In this document: positions 38,189 to 49,362 of the stretch, one piece after another | How the letters are laid out: each line of letters begins with the position of its first letter | How positions within the stretch are numbered: position 1 is the first letter of the stretch | NCBI RefSeq assembly: GCF_000027125.1 | Contig: NC_017626.1 | Strand: one strand, 5' to 3' | Source of the DNA: Escherichia coli 042 | GTDB lineage: Bacteria > Pseudomonadota > Gammaproteobacteria > Enterobacterales > Enterobacteriaceae | DNA: 64,000 bases | Notes under the pieces: generated by a model | Seen by the model: the letters and a program-made list of their open reading frames with translations, nothing else | Told to the model about the DNA's origin: nothing | Databases searched by the model: none | Made by a program: the position numbers and the translations under genes

Positions 38189-38767
38189 TTAAACAGCCTG
38201 TACTCTCTGTTCATCCAGCAGTTGTGGGATAATATCGGCAGGATTCTGGGAAAGTTTACGTCTTTTTACTGCCCGGGATGGCGGCTGACATAAGCTGCAG
38301 GCAAAGCTGCCAACAGGCTGGTGAGCGTGGGTAATAAAATTGCCGCCGCAGCAGTTGCAGCTGGAAAGTTGCAGTAATCCACTTTCAACAAACCGCACCA
38401 ATGTCCAGGCACGGGTTAATGCCAGCAGCGGTCCGTCTTCTGGTTGCGGGCACTGTTCAAGGTATAAACGGTAGGCTTTGATCACCGCATCGACGCCATT
38501 ACACAAACCGGTTTTCAGTAAAAACTGCCATGCGTTACAGAACATCGAAGCATGAACGTTTTGTTCCCAGGTCATAAACCAGTCGGTTGAGAATGGCAGC
38601 ATGCCTTTCGGCGGTGGGCTTCCGCGCAGTTCTTTATAGAGTTTTATCAGGCGTCCGCGGCTTAACTGTGTTTCGCTTTCCAGCATCTGCAAACGAGCGC
38701 CCAGGGTGATCAATTCCATTGCCAGCTGAATATCCCGCGCTTTCTGAACAATGCTTTTTTCACTCAT
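38189..38767 (-). CDS. flhC: flagellar master regulator subunit FlhC
   Basis: 192 aa, [27 protein letters not shown]; zinc-binding Cys cluster. Confidence 0.97.
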
Positions 38768-38769
38768 GA

Positions 38770-39120
38770 TCAGGCCCTTTTCTTGCGCAGCGCTTCTTCA
38801 GGCTGATTAACATCATTCAGCAAGCGTGTTGAGAGCATGATGCCGGTATGAATTTGCTGGAGATCGTCAACGCGGGAATCTTGCGTCAACTGAGTAATCG
38901 TCTGGTGGCTGTCAAAACGAAAGTGACAAACCAGTTGATTGGTTTCTGCCAGCTTAACCATTTGCGGAAGAGTCAGTGCCGCTAACGTTGTCGCCATTTC
39001 TTCATTTATGCCGAGACGAAACATTGCGGACGCTTTGTCCTGAACAATCAGACGCTGTGCAAGTAGTAAATATGACAAGTTGATGTCATAAATGTGTTTC
39101 AGCAACTCGGAGGTATGCAT
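38770..39120 (-). CDS. flhD: flagellar master regulator subunit FlhD
   Basis: 116 aa from [20 protein letters not shown] (a 119-aa version would start at 39129). Confidence 0.93.
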
Positions 39121-39900
39121 TATTCCCACCCAGAATAACCAACTTTATTTTTATGCGGTCTCACCGCACCCCGTGATGTCGCCGGGAAGCCCCGGTAAAA
39201 AATAATTAGCATTAGAATAGTTGCGATAAGCTGCAACAGGCAGAGCCCCTTTTTTGGATTTAATAAGTCCTCACAAATAGAAGGGGCTCTTTACACTTAT
39301 CTAAGATTTTTCCTAAATCGACGCAACTGTACTCGTCACTACACGCACATACAACGGAGGGGGGCTGCGATTTTCAATAATGTGTGATGCAGATCACACA
39401 AAACACTCAATTACTTAACATAAATGTATAAGTCATACTTTTGTTTTGGGTGTATTTCAATCTGTTAAAAAGTTTTTCGCAACGCTAGCAAGCAAAAATG
39501 AAACAGGAATAATCGAAATGGGATGTTGCGCACAGTTAAAATAACTCACCGTAAATAATCATCTGCTATAAATAATCACTTTCATGCAATACCAGATAAG
39601 CTATTTTTAAACAGACACTTACCGCACAACAAACTAATTAAATACAAAGAAAGGCAACAATCAACTTAATGTTAATAAAATGTTTTACATATATTAACCA
39701 CTTGTTTAATATGGAGAATCAGTACATTATTTTCTTATAATTACAGTTGAAATCATATGATCACCGAGAGTGATTGATTAATTGTCTTTACTAATAATCA
39801 GACTAATATTTACCTGTTTGACTGAGTTGGGATTGCGTCGTTTCTCCATTAGGAGTAAAGCTTTAATGTCACCTGAAGTTCACAGAATAAGGAACAGGTT
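39121..39900. promoter_or_regulatory. flhDC class 1 control region (divergent from uspC); no IS element present
   Basis: About 780 bp, AT-rich intergenic region with no transposase ORF and no inverted repeats. Confidence 0.7.
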
Positions 39901-40329
39901 ATGAGCTATAGCAATATTCTTGTCGCCGTTGCGGTTACACCGGAAAGTCAGCAACTGCTGGCAAAAGCGGTATCTATCGCCAGGCCAGTAAAGGGACACA
40001 TCAGTTTAATTACTCTCGCGTCCGACCCGGAAATGTACAATCAATTAGCTGCGCCGATGCTTGAAGATTTACGCAGCGTGATGCAGGAAGAAACGCAAAG
40101 CTTTCTTGATAAGTTAATTCAGGATGCGGGGTATCCCGTTGACAAGACGTTTATTGCCTACGGTGAGTTAAGCGAACATATTCTGGAAGTTTGTCGCAAA
40201 TATCATTTCGATTTGGTGATTTGCGGTAATCACAATCACAGTTTCTTTTCGCGAGCATCCTGCTCGGCGAAAAGAGTGATTGCCTCAAGTGAGGTCGATG
40301 TGCTGTTAGTTCCACTTACGGGAGATTAA
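39901..40329 (+). CDS. uspC: universal stress protein C
   Basis: 142 aa, MSYSNILVAVAVTPESQQLLAKAVSIARP. Confidence 0.93.
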   Translation: MSYSNILVAVAVTPESQQLLAKAVSIARPVKGHISLITLASDPEMYNQLAAPMLEDLRSVMQEETQSFLDKLIQDAGYPVDKTFIAYGELSEHILEVCRKYHFDLVICGNHNHSFFSRASCSAKRVIASSEVDVLLVPLTGD

Positions 40330-47072: not shown

Positions 47073-47576
47073 ATGGCAACCGCTGGAATGCTTCTCAAAC
47101 TCAACTCTCAAATGAACCGCGAGTTTTACGCATCCAATCTCTACCTTCACCTGAGTAACTGGTGTTCTGAACAGAGTCTGAACGGCACCGCCACTTTCCT
47201 TCGCGCCCAGGCACAAAGTAATGTGACCCAAATGATGCGCATGTTTAACTTTATGAAGAGTGTCGGCGCTACCCCAATCGTTAAAGCCATTGATGTTCCC
47301 GGTGAAAAACTGAACTCTCTGGAAGAACTGTTCCAAAAAACGATGGAAGAATACGAGCAACGTTCAAGCACGCTGGCGCAGTTAGCCGATGAAGCGAAAG
47401 AACTGAATGATGATTCAACCGTCAATTTCCTGCGCGATCTGGAAAAAGAACAGCAGCATGATGGCCTGTTGCTGCAAACCATTCTTGATGAAGTGCGCAG
47501 TGCGAAACTTGCGGGTATGTGCCCTGTGCAGACCGACCAACATGTTCTGAATGTCGTGTCACACCAGCTGCATTGA
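47073..47576 (+). CDS. ftnB: ferritin-like protein FtnB
   Basis: 167 aa, [26 protein letters not shown]. Confidence 0.93.
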
Positions 47577-47655: not shown

Positions 47656-47907
47656 TTAATGGGATTCGCCCTGTGGGGTAAACTTGAGTTCAATCAGCGC
47701 GATGGCTTTTTGGATTGCCCGCATGGTGACCGGGTCTGCGGCGGCGGGATGGTGAGTAAAGTCGATATTCTTCAGCTGGCTGGACATTTTTTCACGAACT
47801 TCAACGGGCGCGATTACATCGAGAACATCCAGAATTTGTTTGATAACCAACTGGCAAGCAACCACATCAGAAACCAGTTCCTGATCGGCATTCAGCGGCT
47901 GGGACAT
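47656..47907 (-). CDS. yecJ: DUF2766 protein YecJ
   Basis: 83 aa, [24 protein letters not shown]. Confidence 0.85.
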
Positions 47908-47993
47908 CGTAAACTCCTGATAGCATTTTGAAAGCCGTTATAGTAGCGGCTTCACATCTTCAGCGATAGTCACATCCACCGTCATCAGGACAC

Positions 47994-48020
47994 AAAAAAA
48001 CCTGCCGGAGCAGGTTTTTT
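47994..48020. terminator. bidirectional rho-independent terminator 3' of azuC
   Basis: aaaaaaa-cctgc-cgga-gcagg-tttttt. Confidence 0.75.
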
Positions 48021-48021
48021 G

Positions 48022-48108
48022 TTATCGGAACATATTGCCTGGCGGTACGTCTTTGAACGTCTTGCAATAGTTATTGAACATACTTTTCAGGATCTTGCGC
48101 AGTTTCAT
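48022..48108 (-). CDS. azuC: small membrane-associated protein AzuC (28 aa)
   Basis: The minus strand reads ATG AAA CTG CGC AAG ATC CTG AAA AGT ATG TTC AAT AAC TAT TGC AAG ACG TTC AAA GAC GTA CCG CCA GGC AAT ATG TTC CGA TAA = MKLRKILKSMFNNYCKTFKDVPPGNMFR; below the ORF-track length cutoff. Confidence 0.88.
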   Translation of the reverse strand: MKLRKILKSMFNNYCKTFKDVPPGNMFR

Positions 48109-48369
48109 CGCGGCACTCCGACTATTTGTTATGCAGGTGTTATTGTCTTTGCGCTTATAATATGACAACCATCACAAAAATCAATCTTTATGTGATGTAA
48201 ATCACACAAATACCTCTTTAATGTTATAAAAATGATAATCAAAAAGCAGCCCCCCCTTTCTGACACATACAGATGGCAAGAAATAGCGCCTGCCAGGCGT
48301 CTTTTCCGGCCATTGTCGCAGCGCTGTAGCGCGTAAAATACTGCTTTCTTTTACTCTTCTGGCTGGACC

Positions 48370-48693
48370 ATGAGACTTCTGATTCTGACTCTTTCATTAA
48401 TAACGCTGGCGGGGTGCACAGTTACTCGCCAGGCTCATGTGGGCGAAGTTGACGCGGCAACAGGTATTGTTCGGTTGGTTTATGATCAGGCTTTTTTGCA
48501 GCATGCCCGTACCGATCGTTATGTCAGTCGCGGAATCGCCGATCGCGCATGCCAGCAGGAAGGCTATACCCACGCTATCCCCTTTGGTCAGCCAGTAGGC
48601 AACTGTAGCCTCTTTGCGGGTTCCTTATGTTTGAATACGGAATTCACTTTGTCATATCAGTGCCATCATTCCGCCTTCCCTGTTTTTCTCTAA
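48370..48693 (+). CDS. yecR: lipoprotein YecR
   Basis: 107 aa; lipobox LAGC in MRLLILTLSLITLAGCTV. Confidence 0.88.
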   Translation: MRLLILTLSLITLAGCTVTRQAHVGEVDAATGIVRLVYDQAFLQHARTDRYVSRGIADRACQQEGYTHAIPFGQPVGNCSLFAGSLCLNTEFTLSYQCHHSAFPVFL

Positions 48694-48864
48694 ATGTTTT
48701 AATCAGCGAGGGGGATCTTCGCTGATTAAATAAATAGCGGTAATGCGTTTTATTCCCATTCGTATTTTTAATAAATGAAGTTTATATTTTACCTTTTGCA
48801 AATAATAAAATAACAAATTATAGTGACGCCACAGCAACAAATATAACCTTTGTGGAGCACTATC

Positions 48865-49362
48865 ATGCTGAAACCAGAAATGATTGAAAAACTTAATGAG
48901 CAGATGAACCTGGAACTGTACTCTTCACTGCTTTATCAGCAAATGAGCGCCTGGTGCAGCTATCATACCTTCGAAGGTGCTGCCGCGTTCCTGCGCCGTC
49001 ACGCCCAGGAAGAGATGACGCATATGCAGCGTCTGTTTGATTATCTGACTGATACCGGCAACTTACCGCGTATTAATACCGTTGAATCTCCGTTTGCTGA
49101 ATATTCCTCACTTGATGAATTATTCCAGGAAACCTATAAACACGAACAATTAATCACCCAGAAAATTAACGAACTGGCTCATGCTGCAATGACCAATCAG
49201 GACTACCCAACATTTAATTTCCTGCAATGGTATGTTTCTGAGCAGCATGAAGAAGAGAAACTGTTCAAATCGATTATTGATAAATTAAGCCTGGCAGGCA
49301 AAAGCGGCGAAGGTTTGTATTTTATCGACAAAGAACTCTCCACCCTCGACACACAAAACTAA
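48865..49362 (+). CDS. ftnA: ferritin FtnA
   Basis: 165 aa from [27 protein letters not shown]; the ORF track adds 5 codons. Confidence 0.95.

Follow-up and report, generated by a model that had tools for sequence, protein, structure and literature searches.

A 28-codon reading frame between yecJ and yecR

The interval between yecJ and yecR in Escherichia coli 042 raises the question whether a reading frame of only 28 codons is a gene, and whether its transcript serves as an mRNA, as a regulatory RNA, or as both. We addressed this question in a window of 64,000 nucleotides, the whole stretch of DNA analyzed (contig NC_017626.1). Its list of open reading frames (ORFs) places the interval among the following genes:

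47073..47576, strand not given: ftnB
47656..47907, minus strand: yecJ
48370..48693, plus strand: yecR
48850..49362, strand not given: ftnA

An earlier inspection made without database searches (hereafter the sequence-only reading) had described a 28-codon minus-strand ORF that ends in TAA, directly adjoins a stem-loop and T-run, and was missed by the size cutoff of the ORF track. The features concerned are:

48022..48108, minus strand: azuC coding sequence, supported by translation, an NCBIfam model, tblastn, cross-species alignment and codon-position variation
48116..48119, minus strand: Shine-Dalgarno sequence GGAG, 7 nt 5' of the azuC ATG, with a core that is invariant or nearly so across genera
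47994..48020, minus strand: intrinsic terminator composed of an A tract, CCUGC stem, UCCG loop, GCAGG stem and U7

Translation of 48108..48022 bore out this description. The minus-strand letters run from ATG AAA CTG to CGA TAA, with the start codon at 48108-48106 and the stop codon at 48024-48022, and the 28 codons specify MKLRKILKSMFNNYCKTFKDVPPGNMFR. A misread in-frame stop, which would have spoken against the gene, did not come to light; the frame contains zero internal stops and no frameshift. The ORF is indeed missing from the list made with a 60-aa cutoff. When the cutoff was lowered to 20 aa, its frame appeared only as a mechanical 48-aa ORF that begins with a TTG at 48168.

A length of 28 codons does not by itself rise above chance, because 58 ORFs of 20 aa or more overlap the surrounding 3.3 kb. 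We take the reality of azuC to rest on homology, synteny and the codon-position substitution pattern.

The composition of the peptide was examined over residues 1-20, where the helical hydrophobic moment is 0.53 compared with 0.23 ± 0.12 for shuffled sequences, a value reached by 1.4% of the shuffles. The mean hydrophobicity of the same residues is -0.25 and the net charge of AzuC is +6. The peptide is predicted to be amphipathic and not transmembrane. A hydrophobic peptide resembling type I toxins was rejected on account of this hydrophobicity, charge and amphipathic character.

The terminator, AAAAAACCTGC-TCCG-GCAGGTTTTTTT, extends over 48020..47994 after a single C (48021) past the azuC stop. 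Its hairpin starts 2 nt past the stop codon, has a predicted energy of -16.0 kcal/mol and is followed by a run of 7 T, so that the stem-loop and T-run of the sequence-only reading were recovered where it had put them; the same hairpin also forms in the fold of the whole transcript. Across genera, the two stem arms and the two tracts show virtually no change, and the loop varies. A simple terminator scan did not list this structure, presumably because the A and T tracts pair together and thereby consume the T tail that the scan rule requires. The terminator is symmetric by virtue of its A and T tracts, and potentially bidirectional. A weak terminator that the scan did list, at 48299..48287 on the minus strand (CGCCTGGCAGGCG), is probably a chance match, with no gene upstream on that strand.

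Identity with azuC of K-12

The AzuC peptide of the window is identical to K-12 AzuC (b4663) at 28/28 residues by tblastn. It also matches the NCBIfam equivalog NF033642 with 75.9 bits (cutoff 30, E = 1.3e-21) over positions 1-26 of the 26 in the model; no model for AzuC exists in Pfam. A search with the 381 bp around the ORF found a match in 5419 of 5426 complete E. coli genomes, under which RefSeq carries the label 'azuC: stress response protein AzuC'. Only 37 of the 5419 reach 99% identity or more with the intergenic haplotype of the window. Gene order in both K-12 MG1655 and the best-matching E. coli genome is araF-ftnB-yecJ-azuC-yecR-ftnA-yecH-tyrP, and azuC of the window is flanked by the same neighbors as its K-12 counterpart.

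Two features are annotated over this sequence in K-12, the CDS azuC (b4663) and the ncRNA azuR (b4434, 1987843..1988001). A search of Rfam returned no family for the AzuCR RNA. The only two matches, to STnc370 (33 bits; gathering score 54) and rsmX (23 bits; gathering score 56), fell below threshold and were rejected as noise driven by the terminator hairpin. The STnc370 match lies at 47962-48026 on the plus strand, that is, on the reverse complement of the azuC terminator, and was not considered a real homologue.

The identification as AzuC put forward by the sequence-only reading is therefore correct. The database comparison and the small-protein annotation of the yecJ-yecR interval, both of which it had proposed as checks, return azuC; the position between the two genes is shared by the window, K-12 and the closest E. 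coli genome; and IsrB is a valid alternative name, as the RNA was first called IS092/IsrB (PMC8915982). The description of the gene as unlisted holds for the earlier ORF track but not for RefSeq, which annotates azuC in the matching genomes. Likewise, the ORF was correctly drawn but the unit was understated, as the transcript is larger than the 87-nt ORF and is also the base-pairing regulatory RNA AzuR. The identification is correct but already known: RefSeq annotates azuC routinely, and both the protein and the function of the RNA have been characterized experimentally.

Transcript, promoter and control sites

To place the ORF within its transcription unit, we aligned the window with K-12, for which the transcription start (1988001) and a length of 164 nt have been reported (PMC8915982), and scanned the upstream region for promoter and operator sequences. 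The resulting features are:

47987..48150, minus strand: AzuCR transcript of ~164 nt, its ends mapped by homology to K-12
48179..48184, minus strand: -35 hexamer TTGATT, from the promoter scan, conserved across genera
48157..48162, minus strand: -10 hexamer TATTAT, from the promoter scan, 7 nt upstream of the K-12-aligned transcript start
48191..48206, no strand assigned: distal CRP-type palindrome TGTGA-N6-TCACA, perfect, centered at about -48.5 from the transcript start
48161..48176, no strand assigned: proximal CRP-type palindrome TGTGA-N6-TCATA, 1 mismatch, centered at about -18.5
48133..48139, minus strand: CACCUGC, target of FnrS within the 5' UTR, 25-31 nt before the azuC ATG, positioned as in PMC8915982

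The +1 position falls at 48150, which aligns with K-12 1988001. The 3' end lies at 47992 if the RefSeq azuR feature (159 nt) is followed, or at 47987 according to the 164-nt length given in PMC8915982; the two sources disagree on the length of azuR. They also differ in the numbering of the azuC ORF, which spans nt 40-126 in PMC8915982 and nt 43-129 when counted from the stated +1 at 1988001 with the RefSeq CDS. Across the transcript, the window and K-12 differ at three bases, none of which alters the protein. Two lie in the 5' UTR (nt 18, C in the window and U in K-12; nt 28, A in the window and G in K-12), and the third is synonymous (nt 57, G in the window and A in K-12; Lys-5 AAG vs AAA). 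The fold of the whole transcript is marginally more stable than those of shuffled sequences (z = -1.8). Between genera, the 5' UTR differs in length by numbers of nucleotides that are not multiples of three.

The promoter is sigma-70-like, consisting of TTGATT, a spacer of 16 nt and TATTAT, with 9 of 12 consensus matches, and it is conserved across genera. At the sequence level, AzuCR would thus be an independent transcript with its own promoter and intrinsic terminator. Upstream of the promoter, a run of G at 48250-48256 (minus strand) has 7 G in the window and 6 in K-12.

Only three CRP-type sites with at most one mismatch occur in the 64-kb window, and two of them lie within 60 bp upstream of the azuCR start. 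The proximal palindrome fills the promoter spacer and covers the first five bases of the -10 hexamer; its sequence TTTGTGA...TCATA is nearly invariant across genera, and the GTGA and TCAC half-sites of the distal palindrome are conserved across genera. The position of the proximal putative site is consistent with repression by promoter occlusion. The third palindrome of the window, TGTGATGCAGATCACA at 39383-39398, is perfect and located ~250 bp upstream of flhD, between flhDC (38189..39129, minus strand) and uspC (39901..40329, plus strand); it is presumably the known flhDC CRP site. For azuCR in K-12, CRP-mediated repression of the promoter and predicted CRP sites have been reported (PMC8915982).

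The site CACCUGC in the 5' UTR is fully complementary to the FnrS 5' end GCAGGUG (FnrS sequence from K-12) and is conserved across genera. The predicted FnrS/AzuCR duplex has an energy of -14.3 kcal/mol, which was reached by 8/500 shuffles. The last base of the heptamer (48133, nt 18) is C in the window, in agreement with the cross-genus consensus, and the K-12 heptamer reads CACCUGU. With C in place of U, the first base of FnrS would be engaged in a G-C rather than a G-U pair. Since almost all other genera have C as their consensus, K-12 carries the derived, weaker FnrS site, and this C at nt 18, restoring the G-C pair with FnrS, is the only strain-specific point of the locus.

Conservation across species

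We inspected the region upstream of yecJ in 80 species-level loci that were fetched via the neighboring YecJ protein. An intact AzuC ORF of 27-29 codons was found in 58 of them, covering about a dozen genera of Enterobacteriaceae. These intact loci yielded 54 distinct nucleotide sequences, including that of the window, in which 10, 11 and 26 of 27 sites vary at codon positions 1, 2 and 3, respectively. The pooled pN/pS is 0.16, and there were zero stops or frameshifts among the 54 sequences. Given the bias of variation towards third positions, the low pN/pS and an ORF that is intact in 58 of 80 loci, we conclude that azuC is a selected coding gene and not a chance ORF. The whole peptide appears to be under purifying selection, and its C-terminal half, TFKDVPPG-MF, is invariant in the 54 sequences.

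The gene is present in Escherichia (including E. albertii and E. whittamii), the Citrobacter amalonaticus/sedlakii group, Enterobacter, Lelliottia, Huaxiibacter, Leclercia, Silvania, Kosakonia, Pseudenterobacter, Pseudescherichia and Pseudocitrobacter. It was absent upstream of yecJ in Salmonella enterica subsp. arizonae and diarizonae, C. koseri, the C. freundii complex and Buttiauxella. That AzuC homologues are widespread in Enterobacteriaceae was already stated in a 2025 review (PMC12310071), so the distribution seen here is no novelty.

Several variants were seen among the intact genes (L numbers denote loci of the sample). GTG replaces ATG as the start codon in several species of the Enterobacter group (L019, L032, L038-L041 and L044; Enterobacter, Lelliottia). 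A two-codon insertion in Pseudocitrobacter (L081, L082) gives a 29-aa protein beginning MKQRMRKILK. Outside Escherichia and one C. amalonaticus locus, AzuC is 27 aa long and lacks the terminal Arg.

In Escherichia sp. MOD1-EC7003 (L003, 1732-2000), a natural deletion took out both yecR and azuC, leaving only a mutated azuC terminator (AAAAAAACTGTTCCGGCTGGTTTTTT) and the yecJ-proximal spacer, with the start of the divergent ftnA now ~270 bp upstream of yecJ. Other sequences occupy the place of azuC elsewhere. A 212-aa ORF beginning MKIALMMENSQ replaces it on the yecJ strand in Salmonella arizonae/diarizonae and C. koseri (L010, L017, L049; ~1190-1890), and an opposite-strand ORF of 410-473 aa stands there in Citrobacter sp. 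On2M and C. braakii (L024, L026; ~450-1870).

Alternative readings of the locus

In the original view of IsrB/IS092, the RNA was purely non-coding, which would make the 28-codon frame a chance ORF. ORFs of this length are common by chance, as the 58 counted within 3.3 kb illustrate, and a base-pairing function of the AzuCR RNA has been demonstrated (PMC8915982). However, the frame is open in 58 species with variable positions of 10, 11 and 26 of 27 and a pN/pS of 0.16, a conserved GGAG stands 7 nt 5' of the ATG, and K-12 has provided both a tagged protein and ribosome profiling (PMC8915982). A purely non-coding RNA is therefore extremely improbable, and the codon-position pattern would already suffice to refute a chance ORF. 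Even less credible, to the point of having practically no chance of being the true gene, is the 48-aa ORF from the TTG at 48168. It is the longest mechanical ORF in the azuC frame, but its TTG lies in the promoter spacer directly 5' of the -10 hexamer and 18 nt upstream of the homologous +1 at 48150. Moreover, the 5' UTR indels between genera do not preserve the frame, and the NCBIfam model spans only the 28-aa form.

The order of a small ORF, an adjoining terminator and then yecJ, 114 nt downstream on the same strand, also suggests a transcription attenuator, in which azuC would be a leader peptide whose translation controls terminator read-through into yecJ. The distance from stop codon to hairpin is short in most species, and no strong sigma-70 promoter that could serve yecJ came up in the consensus scan of the spacer. 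In Escherichia sp. ESNIH1, Pseudescherichia vulneris and Enterobacteriaceae UBA7338 (L060, L061, L069; ~1930-2000), yecJ lies 65-66 nt past azuC, and in the alignment of L061 an otherwise widespread TACTAT element upstream of yecJ is missing; yecJ may depend on read-through from azuC in these three. The L061 alignment also has a 14-nt insertion between the azuC stop codon and the terminator. Against attenuation, TACTAT(A/G) occurs at 47939-47944 of the minus strand, ~30 nt upstream of yecJ. Nearly every species examined retains it, and among these are Salmonella, C. koseri, a C. freundii-complex species and Buttiauxella, all of which lack azuC. Its presence with and without azuC points to an independent yecJ promoter, of which it is likely the -10 element, although it was not among the minus-strand hits of the consensus promoter scan. 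Furthermore, purifying selection extends over the whole peptide rather than a few regulatory codons, an alternative antiterminator structure was not found in the predicted transcript fold, and a discrete 164-nt RNA with trans-acting functions of both AzuC and AzuR is documented (PMC8915982). We thus regard an attenuator as very unlikely.

A transcript with two functions

The feature is almost certainly E. coli azuCR, a transcription unit of its own that spans ~164 nt, lies between yecR and yecJ and has two functions; none of the observations contradicts this identification. The ORF, its Shine-Dalgarno sequence, the terminator, the sigma-70-like promoter, the CRP-type palindromes, the family match and the selection on the peptide were all observed here; the functions are taken from published experiments on the K-12 RNA, which differs at three bases (PMC8915982), with a later review as second source (PMC12310071). 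AzuCR, formerly IS092/IsrB, was described as a dual-function RNA by Raina et al. 2022 in PNAS (PMC8915982). In K-12, translation of AzuC was shown by SPA tagging and ribosome profiling, and the protein is amphipathic and membrane-associated, co-purifies with GlpD and raises dehydrogenase activity in enzyme assays (PMC8915982). AzuR represses cadA and galE by base pairing, as confirmed by compensatory mutations, and FnrS represses AzuC synthesis under anaerobiosis (PMC8915982).

For cadA, pairing was localized to the vicinity of the ribosome-binding site and, on the side of AzuCR, to the inside of the azuC ORF (PMC8915982). Our own prediction gives:

48037..48062, minus strand: predicted AzuR pairing core, transcript nt 89-114; extended to nt 81-125 (48070..48026)

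The coordinates of this region are a prediction of the present analysis and were not taken from a figure of PMC8915982. The core is predicted to pair with cadA from -16 to +10, spanning its ribosome-binding site and start codon, which agrees with the published location. The core duplex has an energy of -24.2 kcal/mol and the extended duplex -36.8 kcal/mol, matched by 0/500 shuffles. Pairing energies were obtained from 26-nt window scans and short targets, as whole-length AzuCR duplexes with FnrS, cadA and galE are long and artefactual. The predicted cadA-pairing stretch is identical in the window and K-12. The galE coding sequence offers several candidate AzuR duplexes with energies between -18 and -22 kcal/mol, among which energy alone does not single out one; the published galE site is presumably retained, since the sequence is identical to that of K-12.

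Combining the published experiments with the features of the window, we propose the following scheme. As an mRNA, AzuCR would give rise to the 28-aa amphipathic, membrane-associated AzuC. As the regulatory RNA AzuR, it would base-pair through an ORF-internal segment with two targets, the ribosome-binding site of cadA and the coding region of galE, and repress both genes. Since the regions for coding and for pairing overlap, the two activities, translation and base pairing, would interfere with each other and compete. In the absence of glucose, CRP would repress azuCR transcription through the two putative operators on and just upstream of the core promoter, and under anaerobic conditions the sRNA FnrS would pair with the azuC 5' UTR and block AzuC synthesis.

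Third-codon positions in the stretch predicted to pair with cadA differ freely from one genus to another, so the sRNA function may be less widely conserved than the protein. The contrast between these variable positions and the invariant CRP sites, FnrS site and terminator suggests that AzuR pairing could be a recent addition, in the Escherichia lineage, to an older protein gene. The predicted cadA-pairing stretch also encodes the DVPPG motif, whose Pro-Pro-Gly lies ~15 nt 5' of the terminator-abutting stop codon. PPG is among the strongest EF-P-dependent motifs of ribosome pausing. A programmed pause at this motif could set the switch between the mRNA and sRNA modes of AzuCR, and could also influence formation of the terminator, binding of a chaperone at the 3' end, or read-through into yecJ. 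We consider these proposals, the PPG-pause switch and the recent origin of AzuR pairing in the Escherichia lineage, unlikely.

Significance and comparison with known systems

Nothing biologically new is claimed here for azuC, as AzuC and AzuCR were characterized in Raina et al. 2022. The locus is useful as a positive control, in that a sub-60-codon gene hidden by an ORF-length cutoff was recovered from the DNA letters alone. It also illustrates that apparent intergenic gaps in E. coli can hold complete regulated units, with the promoter, CRP operators, sRNA target site, ORF and terminator of azuCR all contained within ~220 bp.

The closest comparison is AzuCR of K-12 itself, with which the window shares the protein (28/28), synteny, the promoter hexamers, both CRP palindromes, the Shine-Dalgarno sequence, the ORF-internal pairing region and the terminator, with three base differences over 164 nt. 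SgrS/SgrT, the other classic dual-function RNA of enterobacteria, resembles AzuCR in that a single short transcript combines the roles of base-pairing sRNA and of mRNA for a small protein, which modulates a protein of carbon metabolism (PMC8915982). The two have no sequence relationship. Moreover, SgrS keeps its coding and pairing regions apart, with both acting on a single pathway, whereas those of AzuCR overlap, compete and act on partly different pathways. VcdRP/VcdP of Vibrio cholerae is likewise a CRP-repressed dual-function RNA, encoding a protein of ~29 aa that raises the activity of an enzyme of central metabolism. In contrast to AzuCR, its protein is a different one with citrate synthase as the target, its coding and pairing regions are separate, and the two systems are not homologous.
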